64,000 bases of DNA from an uncultured Planctomycetota bacterium (GCA_963752285.1 CAVVXN010000001.1:160001-224000), one strand, 5' to 3'. Counted from the stretch's first letter, positions 54,622 to 62,472 are shown. Notes: a model not told the origin generated them from the letters alone. Translations and numbers: made by a program.

Positions 54622-54990
54622 TCAGACCGGGGGCGGCTCGTCCGCGGCGCCGGCGGCTCGTGTCCGCGGGACCTCGCGCGGAGGCGGCTCGGTCGGGGCC
54701 GGGCGCGGCGCGTCGCCCTCCGTCGCCTCCGGGGCGGCCGTCGTCTCGCTCGCCGGCTTCGTCCCGCGGGCGGGCGGCTTCGGCCGCGGCTTCGAAGTCC
54801 TCGCGTCGAGCCCTCGGATCTCGTTTCGGAGGGGCGTGGTCGCGTCCTCCAGGCCCTGCTTGAACTTCGCGTACGACCGACCGAGGTTGTGCATGACCTC
54901 GGGAAGCCGACCGCCGAACACGAGGAGGGCGACGAACGCGACGAGGAGGATCTCCCCGCTTCCCACCGAGAGCATCGCGATCGGCGTCAT
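54622..54990 (-). CDS. tatA: TatA/TatB-family translocase subunit
   Basis: G..EILLV..VALLVFG.RLPEV..NLGR....FKQG; ATGA overlap with the upstream gene. Confidence 0.85.
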   Translation of the reverse strand: MTPIAMLSVGSGEILLVAFVALLVFGGRLPEVMHNLGRSYAKFKQGLEDATTPLRNEIRGLDARTSKPRPKPPARGTKPASETTAAPEATEGDAPRPAPTEPPPREVPRTRAAGAADEPPPV

Positions 54991-57900
54991 CGGGTCGCGC
55001 CCCGGAGGATGATCTCGGTCGGATCGACCTCCTTCAGGTTCCCGGTTTGGAGATCGATGACGATGCGGCGCTGGCGGCTCACGATGCTCGGGTTCTCGTC
55101 GGGACCGCGCTGGAACGCGAGGTCGCGCGTCCCTTCGCCGGTCAGGATCGCCATCGAGTGTACGACGTCGAGTCGGAAGCGGTCGCCCCAGATGCGGATC
55201 CGCTTCTCGGCCTGACCGACCTCGAAGACCGTGTGCGGTCCCGAGGCCTCCACCTCGCGCACGTCCGCGCCCGCGCGGGACAGGAGGTCGTTCCCCGCCA
55301 CGGTCAGGCGGTCGGCCCACAGGGTCGCGGGCGCGCCCCAGTCGGCCCCGGGGGCGCGTCGGACGAGTCGCCGGATCTCGATCGGGCCGTCCGACGTCAG
55401 CTCGCGGGGGTTCACCTCGATCGGCGCGCTGCACGTCACGGTGAAGCGCTCCCAGGTCGAGGCCGCGCGGTCCCGCCGGATCAGGACGGCCACCGCGGGG
55501 ACGCCCGGCGAGGACGAGGCCTCGAGACGTTCCGGGCCGTTCGTTCCGAGCCACAACGTCAACGTCGGGGCCCAGACCTCGTTCCGCGCGTCCTCGGGGC
55601 CGAAGATCGCCTGGGCGCGCGGCGTGCCGTCCGCGGTGGCCTCGTGGTGGACGGCGTCGTACGCGATGCGCCGGCCCTGGATCGTGCCGTCGGGTCCCTC
55701 GAGCTTCGCCTGACCGATGGCCTCGAGGCCGACGAGACCGTTCGCGTCGAGGCGCGCGGAGAGCCGGTCGGACGTGAGGTCCCAGCGCACGCGCTTCGGC
55801 GGCGGCGCGCCGGCCGCGGCGGGGCTGCGCGTGGGCCGCGCACCGCCCCCGCCCAGGCTCGCGACGCCGCCCAGCGGCGGCGCCGTCGGCTCGAGGACCG
55901 TGCGCCGGAGGCTCACCTGCAGCGTGTCGGCCCGGATCTCGTCCACCGCCGTCGTCGCGGTGGCGAGCTCGGCCCGGACATCCCCTTCGATGCGGATCTC
56001 CTGGTCGGCGTCGAGGCGGGGCCGCCGAGGTGACGGCGACAGGCGAGCGCGGATCTCGATCCGCCCGCTCGTCGTGACGCCGATGGTCGTGGGCGAGCCG
56101 ACCTCGGGCGACCGCAGACCGAGGGCCCCGAGGCCGACGGAGCGCGGCGCGTCCATCGCCACGTAGACCGAGGCCGAGACGCCGCCGTCCGCCGTGACGA
56201 TGCCTTCGGCCCGTTCGAAGCTCATGGATCGAGCCGCCACGGTGTGGCGCGGTCCCGACGGATCGCCGACCGCGACGCGCGCGGGCGCCGTACCTCCACC
56301 GAGGAGGCGCGCCCGGTCCGAGATCCGGTCGTACGCGAGCGCGGCGCCCTCGATCCGCACGGGCAAGCCGACCGTCGCTCCGCCGAACGAGGTCGTCGCG
56401 ACCACGTCGCCGTCCGCGCGCAGGCTCTGGAGCACCCAGGACTCGCGCTCCCTCGTCGGCGTGGCGACCCCGTCACCCGTCTTCCCGGCCGCACCCGGTC
56501 CGTGGCCGCCCAGCAGGCGCTCGCCGCTCCTCAGTCCGTGGAAGGCGAAGCTCGTCCCGGGACCTTCCGCGACGACGACCGGCTCGTCGGAGTCGAGGTG
56601 CTCTCCGACCAGCCGGTCCGTCGTGCCGCTCATCCGCGTTCCGCCGAGCCGGACGTTTCCGAGCAGCGCGAACGAGGTCGCGACGAGACGCTCCCCCGAA
56701 CCGGCCGGTCCCAGGCCCTCCGGCCGAGTCGTCTGTCCGCCGGTCGGCGGGACCTTCTCGAGGAGGAGCGTCAGCTCGTCGCCCTCGAGGCGGTCCCAGT
56801 CGTCGGCCAGGCCGACGTCCTCGCGCTCGAGGCGCGCGCCCTTCTCGAGGACGATCCTCAGGTAGTCCTCGGGTCGGGCTCCAGGACCGATCTCGACCGG
56901 GTCGGGCGTCTCGATCCGGGCCGACTCTTCGGCGCTCGCCCGGAGCGTCCCCATGGGCTTCGAGAGCGCGACGCCCTGCAGGGGAACGTCGCCGTGGAGC
57001 TCGATGCGCGGCTCACCGAGGAGGATGCTCGTCGCGGTCCCGTCCTCCATCACCTCGTGGTGGAGCTTTTGCCCCGCGAGCGAGACGAGGTAGCGACGCC
57101 CGCGTTCGGTGACGTCGGGATACTCCACGACGACGCCGCCCTCGGCGTCGAACGTGTCGAGGTGCCAGCGCGGCCGCGGCGCGCCCGCGGCCACGACCCC
57201 GCGGTGCGCGACGACGAGCGTCCGCTCCGCGTCGAGCGTCCGGCCGCCCTCCTGCTCCGCGTGGACGTGGTGTTCGAGCGACGCCCGGAGCGTCTCCCGG
57301 CCGAACGCCTCCTCCCGCGTCAGGACCGCGCCGCCCTCGGCGGTCACGAAGCCGGGTTTGAACCCCTCGCCCCCGAACGCGAGGAGGGGCCGCCCGTCGG
57401 CGCCCGCGAGGTCCTTGAGGATGCGCAGCGTGACGTCCTTCATCACGTGCACCTTCTCGTGGCCGTTGTCGCGCTCGAGCTCGAGGTCGCGGCCGGCGAG
57501 CGAGAAGGCCTCGTGCCGCACCTCGAACAAGCCGCGGCCGTGCGCACGGCCGCGCCCGGGCTCGAGCTCGACCTCCTGGCCCTCGACCGTGATCCCCTCC
57601 TCCAGGTCCTGGAGCAGGAATCCGCCCTTCACGGTGAGGGTCGCGTCGCGGGACGCGGAGCGCGCCTTGCGGTCCGTGAGGCTCAGCCCTTCGCGGAGCC
57701 ACTCCGCCTCGGCGAGCGGCGCGACGACGTACCAGCGCAGGATGCGGGCCCGTGCGCCGGGCCGTCCCTCGATCAGCCCGCGTGCCTCCTCGACCGTGCG
57801 CGGCTCCCGGTAGACCGACACGCGCACGTTCACGGCCTGGAGGGCCTGGCGGTCGCTGGCCCGCGCGCTCGCCGGCCGCACCTCGCGCGCCTCGATCTCC

Positions 57901-58181
57901 TGGCGCACGAAGTCGGGCACCACGATCGACGCGCCCGTCACCGGGTCGGTCACCTTCACGGGCTCGGGATCGCTCGCGAGCCGGAGGCCCTGCGCGCCGT
58001 GGATCGCCACGGGGTCGCCGTTGGGCGGGACGATCCGCGCGCCGGGGTCCGTGCCCGCGGGGATGTCGGGAACCGACGAGCCCTGCCCCGACGCGCGAGA
58101 CCGCGCGGGCGCCCACGTCACCGAGTAGAGCACCGCGATCGCGGCGACGTGGACGAGCAGGACGAGCGCGAGCCGCCGCAT
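54987..58181 (-). CDS. Large membrane-anchored LptC/LptA(OstA)-like beta-jellyroll repeat protein (1064 aa)
   Basis: N-terminal TM; repeated A.G.V...G..L.YD segments; directly downstream of kdsC. Confidence 0.65.
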   Translation of the reverse strand: MRRLALVLLVHVAAIAVLYSVTWAPARSRASGQGSSVPDIPAGTDPGARIVPPNGDPVAIHGAQGLRLASDPEPVKVTDPVTGASIVVPDFVRQEIEAREVRPASARASDRQALQAVNVRVSVYREPRTVEEARGLIEGRPGARARILRWYVVAPLAEAEWLREGLSLTDRKARSASRDATLTVKGGFLLQDLEEGITVEGQEVELEPGRGRAHGRGLFEVRHEAFSLAGRDLELERDNGHEKVHVMKDVTLRILKDLAGADGRPLLAFGGEGFKPGFVTAEGGAVLTREEAFGRETLRASLEHHVHAEQEGGRTLDAERTLVVAHRGVVAAGAPRPRWHLDTFDAEGGVVVEYPDVTERGRRYLVSLAGQKLHHEVMEDGTATSILLGEPRIELHGDVPLQGVALSKPMGTLRASAEESARIETPDPVEIGPGARPEDYLRIVLEKGARLEREDVGLADDWDRLEGDELTLLLEKVPPTGGQTTRPEGLGPAGSGERLVATSFALLGNVRLGGTRMSGTTDRLVGEHLDSDEPVVVAEGPGTSFAFHGLRSGERLLGGHGPGAAGKTGDGVATPTRERESWVLQSLRADGDVVATTSFGGATVGLPVRIEGAALAYDRISDRARLLGGGTAPARVAVGDPSGPRHTVAARSMSFERAEGIVTADGGVSASVYVAMDAPRSVGLGALGLRSPEVGSPTTIGVTTSGRIEIRARLSPSPRRPRLDADQEIRIEGDVRAELATATTAVDEIRADTLQVSLRRTVLEPTAPPLGGVASLGGGGARPTRSPAAAGAPPPKRVRWDLTSDRLSARLDANGLVGLEAIGQAKLEGPDGTIQGRRIAYDAVHHEATADGTPRAQAIFGPEDARNEVWAPTLTLWLGTNGPERLEASSSPGVPAVAVLIRRDRAASTWERFTVTCSAPIEVNPRELTSDGPIEIRRLVRRAPGADWGAPATLWADRLTVAGNDLLSRAGADVREVEASGPHTVFEVGQAEKRIRIWGDRFRLDVVHSMAILTGEGTRDLAFQRGPDENPSIVSRQRRIVIDLQTGNLKEVDPTEIILRGATR

Positions 58182-58184
58182 CGG

Positions 58185-58703
58185 TCAGGCACCGCCGAGG
58201 GACACGAGGATCTCGTCCCACGCGCCGAGCTGGCGGAGGAGGGTCTCGATCGCTTCGCGGACCGCGCCCCGGCCGCCGGCCGTGCGACACACGTACGTCG
58301 CGACCTTCCGGACCTCCGGGTCTGCGTCGGCCGGCGCGGCGCTGAAGCCCGCCCGCCGCATCGGCGGGAGGTCCGTCAGGTCGTCGCCCACGTACGCCAC
58401 GCCTTCCCACGCGAGGCCGGCGCGCTCCCGCAGCCGGTCCACGGCCGCGAGCTTGTCTCGCGCCCCCTGGACGACCTGTTCGATCCCGAGCTCGCGCGCC
58501 CGGCGGTCCACCGCCGGCGAGGAGCGCCCGGTCACGATCGCCGGCACGACGCCCGCCCGGGCGAGGAGCTGGATCCCCGCGCCGTCCCGGGCGTGGAACG
58601 ACTTGAGCTCCGACCCGTCCGCGCCGTACGTGATGGTCCCGTCCGTGAGCGTGCCGTCCACGTCCATGACGAACAGTCGGATCTTCAACGACGGGGCGGG
58701 CAC
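58185..58703 (-). CDS. kdsC: KDO 8-phosphate phosphatase
   Basis: DVDGTLTDG, K.F..RDG.GI, TGR.S, GDDLTD, GGRGAVRE. Confidence 0.92.
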   Translation of the reverse strand: MPAPSLKIRLFVMDVDGTLTDGTITYGADGSELKSFHARDGAGIQLLARAGVVPAIVTGRSSPAVDRRARELGIEQVVQGARDKLAAVDRLRERAGLAWEGVAYVGDDLTDLPPMRRAGFSAAPADADPEVRKVATYVCRTAGGRGAVREAIETLLRQLGAWDEILVSLGGA

Positions 58704-58970
58704 GGGCGAACGTCCTCGCGAGGGAGAGAACCGAGATACTAGATCGGCCGGTCGTGGTCCGGCCCCCGGGATCCGAAGCCCTGGGACCACGAGGGACCCT
58801 GCGGGCGGGCGGGGCCCCGGCCCGTAACTCCCGCGTGGGCCTTTGGTTGGGCCCGGATGGGGCCGCGCGCGGTCCCGGGGCGGCTCGTGCCCGCGCCCCG
58901 GACCGGGGCCGCGGACGATCACCGGGCCTCAACACGGGGCGCCAGGGCAAGGCGGATAGACTCCCGGCCG

Positions 58971-60728
58971 ATGGAGGAGCTCCGCGTCGATCTCGAGACG
59001 TTCCAGGGTCCCCTGGACCTCCTGCTCCACCTCGTGCAGCAGGAGGAGGTGGATGTCCAGGACGTTCCCCTGGCCCGGGTCGCGGACCGTTTCCTCGAGA
59101 TCTGCCGGAGCCAGGTCGAGAAGCTCGACGTGGACCAGGCGGGCGAGTACCTGGTCGTGGCGAGCCAGCTCCTCGTGCTCAAGAGCCGGGCACTCCTGCC
59201 GCGCGACACGCCGCTCGACCTCGAGGAGATCGACCCGCGGCTCGACCTCGTCCGCCAGCTCCTCGAGTACCGCGGCTTCAAGCAGGTGGCGGGCGAGCTG
59301 GGCCGGCGGGCGGGAGACGAGGAGCTCCGTGTGCCGGTCCAGGTCGCCACCGAGCGCGTCCAGGCGGGCGAGGAGGAGCCGGAGCTCGAGGTCGATCTCT
59401 ATGCGCTCGTCCGCTCGTTCCAGCGGCTCCTGCGCGAGACGGGGGAGGACGCGGTCGTGGCGGTGCCGCGCGAGCGGCTCCCGATCACGCACTACGTGGA
59501 GATCATGTTCGACCGGTTGAGCGCGGCCGGCGGGCGACTCACGTTCACGGAGCTCCTCGGTGGAGGTCGCGACCGCTCGTACGTGATCGGCGCGTTCCTC
59601 GCGCTGCTCGAGCTGATCAAGCTGAGGAAGATCCTCGTCCTCCAGGACGGCTTCGGCGAGATCCAGATCGAGGTCCGCGAGGACGCGCTCGAGAGCGAAG
59701 CGGGCGGGGAGGCCGGCGCCGCGACGCGGGCCATCGAGCAGCCGGAGCTCGGCGGAAGCGGGCGGCTTCGGCTCGTGTTCATGGGGAGCCCGCGGTTCGC
59801 GGTGCCCTCGCTCCAGAGTCTCGTGGGCGCCGGCCTCGCGCCGCAGCTCGTCGTGGTCCCACCGCCGCGACCGGCCGGGCGCGGGCAGCGGCGCCGCGAG
59901 GTGCCCCTCGCCGAGGAGGCCGAGCGGCTCCAGCTCCCGATCCACCGCACGAGCGACGTGAACGGCCGCACCTCGCGCGAGGCGATCGAGGAGACGACGC
60001 CGGACGTGATCGTGACGGCGGGCTTCGGCCAGAAGCTCGGGAGCGCGCTCCTGAGCCTCCCGCGCCGGAGGTGCGTGAACCTCCACGCGAGCCTCCTTCC
60101 GCGCTACCGCGGCGCGAGCCCGATCGTCGCGGCGCTGCGCGAGGGCGCGACGGAGACGGGCGTCACCATCTTCGTGATGGACGAGGAGCTCGACCGCGGC
60201 CCGATCGTCGCGCAGGCCGCCCTGCCGCTCAGAGGCGAGGAGACGTCGGACGAGGTGGCCGAGGCCCTCTCGAAGCTCGGCGCCGACCTCCTCGTCCGGA
60301 CGATTCCCGCCTACGTGGACGGCGAGATCGAGCCCCAGCCCCAGGACGCGTCCCTCGCCACGTACGCGCGGAAGCTCGCGAAGGAGGAAGGGCAGATCGA
60401 CTGGTCCCGCTCCGCGCGCGAGGTCAAGGACCACGTGCGCGCGATGACCAGCTGGCCCGGCGCGCAGACCGCGTGGCAGCCCAAGGTGAAGCACGAACCT
60501 CTCCCGCTCGTCGTCACGAAGGTCGAGATCGTGAGCGAGGCCGGCGAGGCGTCCGCGTCGGGGGCCGCGCCCGGCGCGGTGCTCTCGGCCGAGCCGGAGG
60601 GCCTGGTCGTGCAGTGCGGCCTCGGGAGGGTGCGCGTCACGCGACTCCGCCCGACCGGGGGTCGCGACATGGCGGTGAAGGAGTTCCTGAACGCGCGCCG
60701 GGTCGTCGCGGGCGACCGGCTGACGTAG
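58971..60728 (+). CDS. ScpA (SMC kleisin)-methionyl-tRNA formyltransferase fusion
   Basis: N-terminal FQGPLDLLLHL, A..L..KSR.LLP, FLALLEL (ScpA); C-terminal VFMGSP.FA, NLHASLLPRYRGASPI, ETGVT..M..LD.G, WPGA (Fmt); no intervening stop. Confidence 0.88.
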   Translation: MEELRVDLETFQGPLDLLLHLVQQEEVDVQDVPLARVADRFLEICRSQVEKLDVDQAGEYLVVASQLLVLKSRALLPRDTPLDLEEIDPRLDLVRQLLEYRGFKQVAGELGRRAGDEELRVPVQVATERVQAGEEEPELEVDLYALVRSFQRLLRETGEDAVVAVPRERLPITHYVEIMFDRLSAAGGRLTFTELLGGGRDRSYVIGAFLALLELIKLRKILVLQDGFGEIQIEVREDALESEAGGEAGAATRAIEQPELGGSGRLRLVFMGSPRFAVPSLQSLVGAGLAPQLVVVPPPRPAGRGQRRREVPLAEEAERLQLPIHRTSDVNGRTSREAIEETTPDVIVTAGFGQKLGSALLSLPRRRCVNLHASLLPRYRGASPIVAALREGATETGVTIFVMDEELDRGPIVAQAALPLRGEETSDEVAEALSKLGADLLVRTIPAYVDGEIEPQPQDASLATYARKLAKEEGQIDWSRSAREVKDHVRAMTSWPGAQTAWQPKVKHEPLPLVVTKVEIVSEAGEASASGAAPGAVLSAEPEGLVVQCGLGRVRVTRLRPTGGRDMAVKEFLNARRVVAGDRLT

Positions 60729-60741
60729 CGAGGAGGGCGCG

Positions 60742-61191
60742 GTGCAGGGCTTTCAGCGGCTGCTGGTCCCCATCGACTTCTCGGAGGTCTCCGAACCGAC
60801 GCTCGACATGGCCGTTCGTCTCCTCGCGCCCGACGGCGTCGCGACGCTGCTCCACGTGGTCGAGTGGCTGCCCGTGGTCACGGAGGGGGCGTTCGGCGTG
60901 TATCCCCACCGGCGCGACATCGAGCAGCTGAAGCGGCTCTCGCGCGAGAAACTCGAGGCGTACGCGAAGGCGCGTGAGGGGGTGGGCGTCCGTGTGAAGG
61001 TGGGCGAGGGGAAGCCCGCGACCGTGATCCTCGAGGAGGCCCTGGCCTTCGACCCCGAGCTGATCGTGATCGGCTCCCACGGGCGAAGCGGCCTCGACCA
61101 CCTCCTGATCGGATCGGTGACCGAACGCGTCCTGCGGAAGAGCGAGACCGCGGTGCTGGTGGTCCGCGCCCCGGGCACGCCCGCCGCGTAG
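60742..61191 (+). CDS. Universal stress protein
   Basis: LVPIDFS, LLHVV, IVIGSHGRSG...LIGSVTERVLR. Confidence 0.95.
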   Translation: MQGFQRLLVPIDFSEVSEPTLDMAVRLLAPDGVATLLHVVEWLPVVTEGAFGVYPHRRDIEQLKRLSREKLEAYAKAREGVGVRVKVGEGKPATVILEEALAFDPELIVIGSHGRSGLDHLLIGSVTERVLRKSETAVLVVRAPGTPAA

Positions 61192-61350
61192 CCCGCCCGC
61201 GACGCCGGTCGCACCCGTTCCGCGCCGGGAATCCGGGCTTCGCGAAGGAGGGTGTCGAAGGTCCGGGTCCCTGGTCGATAGGGAGGAGCCCCGGTCGATC
61301 CGTGCCCCGACCGGCCGCGGGCGCGGTCCACGGTGGGAGGGGGAGGCGCG

Positions 61351-62472
61351 ATGAACCTCGATCGGATGGCCCTGAACGCCCTCTCGCGCCTCGACGCCGC
61401 GAGCCGGGTCGGGCGGGACCGCCCCGCGGACACCCGGTCCCCCCAGGACCGGCTGCCCCCCGGGCGCCACCGGGTGCTCTTCCAGGCCGCGCCGGTGGCC
61501 ATCCTGCTCTGCGACCCCCGCGGGCGGATCCTCGACGCGAACGACGAGGCGGTCCGCCTCTCGGGCTGGCCGAAGGACGCGCTCCGGCGCACGACCGTCC
61601 ACGCGATCGTCGCGGCGCCGCCCCGCGCCGAGCGCACGGGGCCCTCGTGCGGCGGGTGCTGGGACGGCCGGTTGGAGCACGCCGAGGGGCCGCCGCGTCC
61701 CGTCCGCGTGCTCGAAGGCCGCCCGCTCGGCGGCGAGGACGGCCCGCGACCGATGTTCCTCCTCGACCTCGGCGACGAGCGAGTCGCCCAGGACGCGGCG
61801 AAGGAGGAGGCCGAGGTCGAGACGATCGCGACCATGGCCCGCGGCGTTTCGCACGAGCTGAGCGGTCTCCTGACCACCGTGCTCGGCTACGTGGACCTGC
61901 TCCGCCCGCACCTCGAGGCGGGCGGCTCGGGGCCGATGTTCCTCGACGACCTCTCCCACGCGCTCGACTCGGCGGTGGGGCTCGCGCAGAGCCTCGGCGC
62001 GCTCTCTGTGCGCGACCCGGTCACGCCCGCGCCGGTCGCGGTCGCCGACCTCTTCGCGCGCCTCGTAGAGCCCGTCACGCAGGCTCTCGGTTCGGCCGTG
62101 CGCCTCGCGCTCGACATCCCGTCCGACGTGCCCGACGTGTCGGTCGATCCCGACCTGGTCTCGGCGGCTTTCGTCGCGGTCGCGCGCGGGACCCGCGCGG
62201 CGCTCGTGCAGGGGGGCCGGTTCGAGGTCCGCGTCGCCGCCGTGGACGCGACGAGCGTGGAAGTGCTCCTGTCCGACACGGGAAGCGCGGTCGATCCGCG
62301 TCAGGCGCACGCGGTCTTCGTCCCGTACGCCCCCTACCGCGCGGACCAGCGCGGCGCGGGTCCCCACCTCGCCGAGGCGCGTGGAGCCCTCCGGAGGACC
62401 GGTGTCGGGATCGAGCTCGACGCGATCGGGGTCCGGGGTCTCTCGCTGCGGGTCCGGTTCCCCCGGAGCTGA
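61351..62472 (+). CDS. PAS + HisKA + degenerate HATPase protein
   Basis: LFQAAPVAI..D..GRI..AN PAS domain; GVSHEL H-box; DTG and F boxes present, N and G2 boxes degenerate. Confidence 0.75.
   Translation: MNLDRMALNALSRLDAASRVGRDRPADTRSPQDRLPPGRHRVLFQAAPVAILLCDPRGRILDANDEAVRLSGWPKDALRRTTVHAIVAAPPRAERTGPSCGGCWDGRLEHAEGPPRPVRVLEGRPLGGEDGPRPMFLLDLGDERVAQDAAKEEAEVETIATMARGVSHELSGLLTTVLGYVDLLRPHLEAGGSGPMFLDDLSHALDSAVGLAQSLGALSVRDPVTPAPVAVADLFARLVEPVTQALGSAVRLALDIPSDVPDVSVDPDLVSAAFVAVARGTRAALVQGGRFEVRVAAVDATSVEVLLSDTGSAVDPRQAHAVFVPYAPYRADQRGAGPHLAEARGALRRTGVGIELDAIGVRGLSLRVRFPRS

Follow-up and report, generated by a model that had tools for sequence, protein, structure and literature searches.

A natural fusion of the condensin kleisin ScpA to methionyl-tRNA formyltransferase in one family of Planctomycetota

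Introduction

Why would a bacterium encode a protein of chromosome organization and an enzyme of translation initiation in one uninterrupted reading frame? The question is raised by a gene in a 64,000-nucleotide stretch of DNA from an uncultured Planctomycetota bacterium (GCA_963752285.1 CAVVXN010000001.1:160001-224000); we call the whole of this stretch the window. A preliminary description, made from the sequence alone, presented the gene as an in-frame fusion of the kleisin ScpA to methionyl-tRNA formyltransferase (Fmt), and proposed that it marks either a physical or regulatory link between the two processes or the lineage-specific collapse of an operon. The def-fmt operon is the usual arrangement, with def as the usual upstream neighbour of fmt, and to our knowledge there is no biochemical connection between the activities of ScpA and Fmt.

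We find that the fusion is a new domain architecture made of two known families; it is no new kind of system. From sequence comparison, the ScpA-Fmt fusion is probably a genuine, vertically inherited bifunctional gene with a single origin at the base of one family, within an uncultured class of the phylum.

Results

One reading frame, two complete modules

The gene occupies 58971..60728 on the + strand. It runs without an internal stop from ATG 58971 to TAG 60726-60728 and encodes 585 amino acids. Alignments with relatives begin at residue 1 of the product started at 58971, which makes this start the likely one; an alternative upstream ATG at 58857 was unsupported. The product forms its own cluster in the public protein collection. 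That a single open reading frame holds a complete ScpA, a linker and a complete Fmt, as first described, is confirmed by the frame itself and by matches to Pfam and NCBIfam models.

The first module is ScpA. Residues 21-234 match the Pfam family SMC_ScpA (PF02616) over profile positions 1-230 of 232 (E 1.8e-28; 100.5 bits against a cut-off of 24.6), and the N-terminal helical domain (residues 1-156) resembles solved ScpA chains (3w6j_A, E 3.1e-24; 4i98_A, E 2.6e-19; 3zgx_C, E 8.3e-18). The NCBIfam ScpA equivalog cut-offs (PRK00104 sub-models) were not reached, the best score being 154.7 bits against 315; these sub-models appear to be narrow lineage models, and the shortfall limits naming by them, not membership of the Pfam family. 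We aligned 99 fused proteins (alignment A1) and used the alignment to build an AlphaFold2 (AF2) model, with a mean predicted local distance difference test (pLDDT) of 84.6 and a predicted template modelling score (pTM) of 0.62. Many ScpA columns of the alignment are invariant. In the model, the ScpA C-terminal domain (172-235) comprises helices 172-185 and 202-217 and strands 221-225 and 231-235, at a block-mean pLDDT of ~81-91. Confidence is 81-91 at the two ends of ScpA and low in its middle, which is expected of a region that folds on ScpB.

The second module is Fmt. The Pfam domains Formyl_trans_N and Formyl_trans_C cover residues 292-445 and 468-576, the latter over profile positions 1-99 of 100 (E 2.6e-21). 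The NCBIfam fmt equivalog TIGR00460 is matched at 235.3 bits against a cut-off of 201.5 (residues 267-580; profile positions 2-308 of 315), and Escherichia coli Fmt (1fmt_A) aligns end to end (chain residues 3-313, E 1.6e-59). N370, H372 and D408 align with N108, H110 and D146 of 1fmt_A, which we take to be the catalytic residues of the E. coli enzyme. H372 and D408 do not vary among the 99 fused proteins, and conservation of N370 is at least 90%. The motif VNLHASLLPRYRG, reported as intact in the preliminary description, is indeed intact in the translation. Furthermore, PRPAGRG in the fusion aligns with the basic loop DRPAGRG of E. coli Fmt, and G303, R304 and G305 are invariant across the alignment; this loop and the C-terminal domain presumably serve tRNA recognition. 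Nearly every Fmt block of the model has a pLDDT of ~91-98. With its diagnostic residues intact, the module is predicted to formylate Met-tRNA(fMet).

The linker and the lost start codon

The two modules are joined by a linker of 27-45 residues (median 30 in the 99 sequences), rich in Ala, Glu, Asp and Gly and with a net charge of -3 to -13. In the window protein it spans approximately residues 237-266 and ends GGSGR, much as first described (GGSG). The linker and a loop within ScpA (121-135) are the two least conserved stretches of the fused protein. Over residues 241-260 the pLDDT is 55-59, and a helix at 250-256 is predicted with low confidence. Conservation in and beside this helix is partial: D/E249 in 81 of the 99 proteins, A251 in 78/99, L/I255 in 96/99 and D/E256 in 86/99. 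None of the five ScpA tails read from the sister family shows the helix motif.

Residue 266 aligns with the start Met of fmt in the sister family. It is Pro in 81/99 fused proteins and Leu (CTT) in the window, and it is never Met, so we rejected an internal start at the ancestral fmt ATG. The first internal GTG had been placed in Fmt strand 1, and this proved correct: 59775-59777 is codon 269, in strand RLVFMG. Among the 13 loci read (20 were searched, and the motif pattern missed 7), codon 269 is GTG in 8, GTC in 4 and ATC in 1. M271, five residues past the lost start, is invariant (99/99). We give this invariance little weight as a sign of an internal start, since Met is also the commonest residue at the equivalent position of stand-alone Fmts (52/117).

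The fusion is conserved in one family

In GTDB, the class to which this genome belongs has a single order. Its 40 species genomes fall into the fused family, f1 (29 genomes in 16 genera, this one included), and its sister family, f2 (11 genomes). The frame is open across the junction in 27 of the 29 f1 genomes and truncated by a contig end in the other two; separate scpA and fmt genes were found in none of the 29. The architecture that the preliminary description proposed to look for in related genomes is thus present in all informative f1 genomes, and the split genes in all close relatives that it envisaged as a counter-case do not occur in the family.

The whole 585-residue query is matched in one frame by 26 f1 genomes, this genome included, and the 25 other full-length copies share 53-73% identity with the window protein. 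G008 has a contig-end fragment (residues 128-584) that spans the junction, the linker and Fmt of G044 are open up to the contig end, and in G018 a contig end cuts the gene at residue 195. Moreover, several public sources together contribute ~100 distinct clusters at 90% identity with the three-domain architecture; where a name is given, it is 'methionyl-tRNA formyltransferase [Planctomycetota bacterium]'. Conservation of the architecture at such identities is far beyond chance.

The Fmt part was also used for a quick maximum-likelihood tree of 43 rows, from which L010, L020, L043, L045 and L047 were left out. In it the 20 fused rows make up one clade, with a Shimodaira-Hasegawa approximate likelihood-ratio test (SH-aLRT) support of 100.

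Separately, two of the six genomes of one f1 genus carry an extra, stand-alone and complete Fmt-like gene (L048, G042:C106:2500-6300; L049, G044:C153:1700-5500) whose identity to the fused Fmt is 41-42%. Together these two genes make up a separate long branch of the tree; they could stem from contamination or lateral acquisition, or be a second paralogue.

Separate gene pairs in the sister family and the phylum

In 10 of the 11 f2 genomes scpA and fmt are separate genes on one strand, with scpA directly before fmt; the eleventh, G035, gave scpA only. The junction is an ATGA overlap in G030 and a GTGA overlap in G025; in G028, G031 and G032 the scpA stop (TGA or TAG) is followed by 3 nt and the fmt ATG, all in frame. 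Because the genes abut or overlap, the loss of one stop codon or a small indel would be enough to give a fusion. At the place of the linker, the five junctions read have a ScpA tail of 25-35 residues rich in Pro, Ala and Glu.

We sampled 121 Planctomycetota genomes. ScpA was matched in 110 of these, and both genes could be placed in 99, with Fmt and ScpA rows paired by hand. In 30 of the 99, from 15 of 70 sampled families, fmt follows scpA on the same strand at a distance of at most 1.6 kb: the genes are fused in 2 of these genomes and lie within 130 nt of each other in 14, and the gap is 180-450 nt in 3 and 600-1550 nt in 11. Of the other genomes, 12 have the genes on one contig with more than 50 kb between them, and 57 have them on different contigs. 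Close pairs are found at, among other loci, G148:C53, G101:C4, G125:C33, G100:C52, G124:C12, G065:C14, G144:C287, G062:C175, G118:C7, G142:C8 and G094:C8. The gap in G039 holds a thioredoxin gene (L044 1627-1953, - strand), and the gaps of 600-850 nt in genomes of other families may hold the same insert. We infer from these comparisons that the scpA-to-fmt gene order is older than the class.

With this query, 11 of the 121 genomes yielded no match to ScpA at E <= 1e-10. They are concentrated in families f10 (0/2 with a match), f23 (0/3) and f46 (0/2), which may have a divergent kleisin or another type of condensin.

A search for other ScpA-Fmt fusions

We searched 1.84 billion representative proteins with HMMER and inspected the best 150 matches for fusions. 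P0076 (614 residues, 669 bits) is the only full-length fused representative, and its ScpA and Fmt parts were confirmed. Three shorter proteins (P0108, P0122 and P0157) are matched only in segments crossing the junction, with identities of 50-64%, and the other high scorers have the ScpA part only (P0125) or the Fmt part only (stand-alone Fmts, ~200-390 bits). No independent ScpA-Fmt fusion from outside this lineage is present among these 150 matches; by our estimate, such a fusion would be expected to score well above a lone Fmt.

One of the short proteins, P0108, has 345 residues and covers only residues 132-442 (the end of ScpA and the Fmt N-domain), though it is encoded on a 459-kb contig. 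A frameshift or a mis-called gene could account for this.

Full-text searching, judged from the listings returned, found no description of a ScpA-Fmt fusion in the literature; the seven papers that name ScpA along with a formyltransferase appear to do so in gene lists. The preliminary claim that the fusion is undescribed therefore holds for the literature searched, but the proteins themselves were already public, as 'methionyl-tRNA formyltransferase'.

Sole copies in the genome

The window belongs to a metagenome-type assembly of 4.64 Mb in 5 contigs, 89% complete. Within this assembly the ScpA profile matches only the fusion gene, and the fmt profile exceeds its cut-off only there. A second formyltransferase match scores 49 bits over profile positions 76-188 only; we judge this coverage and score to be those expected of a PurN-type enzyme, not of Fmt. 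A check for other scpA or fmt copies, suggested in the preliminary description, has thus given none above cut-off in the assembly. The genes smc (SMC_prok_B, 900.5 bits), scpB (SMC_ScpB, 167 bits) and def (Pep_deformylase, 150.9 bits) are each present once, on contig C5, in keeping with the early remark that neither scpB nor def lies near the fusion. With a sole ScpA and a sole fmt, the cell therefore depends on one gene for both, subject to the missing 11% of the genome.

Neighbourhood of the gene

The coordinates of the fusion, its parts and the surrounding genes are collected in Table 1. The universal stress protein gene that follows is probably co-transcribed with the fusion. On the upstream side, G018 (L045) has the end of a similar phosphatase-like protein on the opposite strand. 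A consensus scan of 58600-61400 gave 0 promoter-like and 0 terminator-like sites (0.0 and 0.6 in shuffles) and is uninformative in DNA of 74% GC.

Table 1. Features of the scpA-fmt fusion gene and its surroundings, in window coordinates
Feature	Coordinates	Strand	Basis
scpA-fmt fusion gene, whole	58971..60728	+	Open reading frame listing, sequence, translation; 585 codons + TAG
ScpA (kleisin) module, residues 1-236	58971..59678	+	Pfam SMC_ScpA; solved ScpA chains; AF2 model
Acidic linker, residues 237-266, including lost fmt start position	59679..59768	+	99-protein alignment; AF2
Short semi-conserved helix in linker, residues 249-256	59715..59738	+	99-protein alignment; AF2, low confidence
Methionyl-tRNA formyltransferase module, residues 267-580	59769..60710	+	TIGR00460; 1fmt_A match; AF2
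N370 (60078-60080), H372 (60084-60086), D408 (60192-60194)	60078..60194	+	Alignment to 1fmt_A
Fmt C-terminal (tRNA-binding) domain, residues 468-576	60372..60698	+	Pfam Formyl_trans_C
Universal stress protein gene, 14 nt downstream of fusion stop	60742..61191	+	Pfam Usp, E 6.7e-34
Open reading frame starting with a PAS domain, next after universal stress gene	61333..62472	+	
HAD-family phosphatase gene, upstream, divergent	58185..58700	-	Pfam Hydrolase_3 + Hydrolase
1064-residue open reading frame, N-terminal hydrophobic stretch	54987..58181	-	No Pfam match at E <= 0.001

Discussion

How might such a gene have come about? We propose that in an ancestor scpA lay immediately upstream of fmt, with the scpA stop codon overlapping or adjoining the fmt start codon, and that translation of the two genes would have been coupled in this way. 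Both codons would then have been lost, and the disordered C-terminal tail that ScpA already possessed would have become the acidic linker of ~30 residues. The lineage-specific collapse of an old, translationally coupled operon is a well-supported account of what may have happened, because the fusion is confined to one GTDB family, the f2 pair is adjacent and coupled, and the gene order is widespread in the phylum. Of the two possibilities first raised, it is this one that the comparison bears out.

What would the fused protein do? Its N-terminal module would be the cell's only kleisin, bridging the structural maintenance of chromosomes (SMC) dimer with ScpB, and its C-terminal module would be the cell's only Met-tRNA(fMet) formyltransferase. 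We think it likely that one polypeptide carries two modules that work independently, ScpA closing the SMC ring with ScpB and Fmt formylating Met-tRNA(fMet); the independence of the two on one chain is what we infer. The main consequence of the fusion would then be obligatory 1:1 co-synthesis, with no new joint activity, and the fusion would have fixed a co-synthesis that translational coupling already provided. In the Bacillus subtilis complex the winged-helix C-terminal domain of ScpA binds the SMC head, and it is the corresponding domain that the attached Fmt adjoins in the fusion. C-terminal fluorescent-protein fusions of B. subtilis ScpA are reportedly functional, which would make a C-terminal load plausible. 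Long retention and sole-copy status together imply that the SMC-kleisin interface tolerates the load.

Several observations weigh against this account. Every genome used is a metagenome-type assembly, and the support is at the level of sequence. In the Fmt tree, f2 groups with family f55 (G148 and G101; SH-aLRT 97) and the fused clade is one branch of an unresolved polytomy; the gene tree itself therefore does not show f1 and f2 as sisters. The linker is no featureless spacer; its helix, semi-conserved and specific to the family, could be a docking or a cleavage element. The invariance of M271 and the GTG at codon 269 allow internal initiation, which would give a slightly truncated Fmt. Finally, that the scpA-fmt pairing is kept in 15 of 70 families suggests selection for co-expression and perhaps a functional link.

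The last point leads to the alternative that survives best, one that we nevertheless regard as unlikely: a real functional coupling, in which Fmt is carried on SMC-ScpAB or the supply of kleisin is tied to the capacity for translation initiation. A carried Fmt would mean nucleoid-tethered formylation or tRNA-linked targeting of condensin, and the fusion would be the extreme of a selected partnership. Proximity of the genes in 30 of the 99 phylum-sample genomes fits such a coupling, as do the tight ATGA and GTGA overlaps in f2, the retention of the fusion in all informative f1 genomes (16 genera, down to 53% identity), and the narrow length range and family-specific, semi-conserved helix of the linker. 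However, the linker is also acidic, variable and poorly predicted, and many Planctomycetota keep the two genes apart, on different contigs or more than 50 kb from each other. The thioredoxin gene between the pair in G039 also speaks against coupling; the link therefore behaves as operon membership and not as an obligate pair. Moreover, no independent fusion appears among the matches listed from the representative proteins, and the literature searched yields no link between the two activities. A complex prediction between the ScpA module (1-240) and the Fmt module (265-585) scored 0.00 and is uninformative on binding either way.

The same idea can be put more broadly, as a true physical or regulatory coupling of SMC condensin and translation initiation behind the planctomycetal scpA-fmt partnership as a whole. 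This we consider decidedly improbable. It could take several forms: Fmt could ride on SMC-ScpAB at the nucleoid; Fmt could, by binding initiator tRNA, contribute to the positioning of condensin; or the amount of kleisin could be linked to the capacity for initiation, the linker helix acting as a docking element.

A second alternative holds that the fusion is only genetic, one reading frame yielding two proteins through cleavage of the linker or through internal initiation near codons 269-271. In favour of internal initiation, M271, an ATG codon, is invariant and codon 269 is GTG in 8/13 loci; the linker, for its part, is exposed and poorly structured, and its semi-conserved motif could be a processing site. 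Yet the ancestral start position has Pro in most fused proteins and Met in none, codon 269 is GTC or ATC at five of the 13 loci, and the conservation of M271 needs no role as a start codon, given how common Met is there in stand-alone Fmts. A start at 269 or 271 would also lose most of the first beta strand of the Rossmann-like fold (RIVF; strand 268-272 in the model), and no Shine-Dalgarno-like purine run lies upstream in the 13 junctions read. We therefore hold the production of two proteins to be very unlikely.

A sequencing or assembly error that joined two genes through a lost stop or an indel has a negligible chance of being the explanation and was rejected: although the genome is a metagenome-type assembly, 89% complete, and no contig from public sequencing runs spans 59668-59795 at high identity (only short pieces elsewhere on the gene were found), the same open junction is present in 26 other independently assembled f1 genomes and ~100 distinct protein clusters from several public sources have the fusion, which would need one error common to all, and the fmt start codon has been replaced as well, which goes beyond the mere loss of a stop. 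The contigs came from four of five DNA runs with low word shares (0.05-0.20), among which there was no RNA run, and their failure to span the junction is uninformative either way.

The gene, both halves of which come from well-known families, is of interest for several smaller reasons. It provides a natural kleisin with a 35-kDa enzyme at its C-terminus, kept through the whole history of a bacterial family, and hence a natural construct for structural work on SMC complexes. It exposes an unremarked, phylum-wide scpA-fmt gene pair or operon in Planctomycetota, a classic 'Rosetta stone' hint that chromosome segregation is co-regulated with the start of translation. The fusion is also present but under-annotated in databases: since the proteins are annotated as 'methionyl-tRNA formyltransferase' only, automated surveys would score these genomes as being without ScpA.

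With stand-alone ScpA (3zgx_C, 3w6j_A and 4i98_A) the window protein shares a full-length SMC_ScpA match, the N-terminal domain, and a genome with a single smc and a single scpB; it differs in bearing a 320-residue enzyme at its C-terminus and in that scpB is not adjacent. With E. coli Fmt (1fmt and 2fmt) it shares the N/H/D residues, the SLLP motif, the basic loop and the C-terminal domain, whereas its Fmt has no start codon of its own and, where def would be usual, has ScpA and a linker before it. The f2 gene pairs have the same order and strand and 33-41% identity over both halves. Unlike the fusion, these and other planctomycetal pairs retain their own stop and start codons, and the f2 tails read, which are disordered, acidic and Pro-rich and lie at the site of the linker, are without its semi-conserved helix.

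A parallel to the fusion event is found in two Def-Fmt proteins of the representative set, P0169 (508 residues) and P0233 (485 residues), which combine Pep_deformylase, Formyl_trans_N and Formyl_trans_C; the window protein has no match to the deformylase domain (PF01327). In Def-Fmt, as in ScpA-Fmt, the product of the upstream gene has been joined to the N-terminus of Fmt, in what would be a parallel operon collapse. The partners set the two apart: Def belongs to the same pathway as Fmt, that of formylation and deformylation, whereas ScpA is a protein of chromosome organization.

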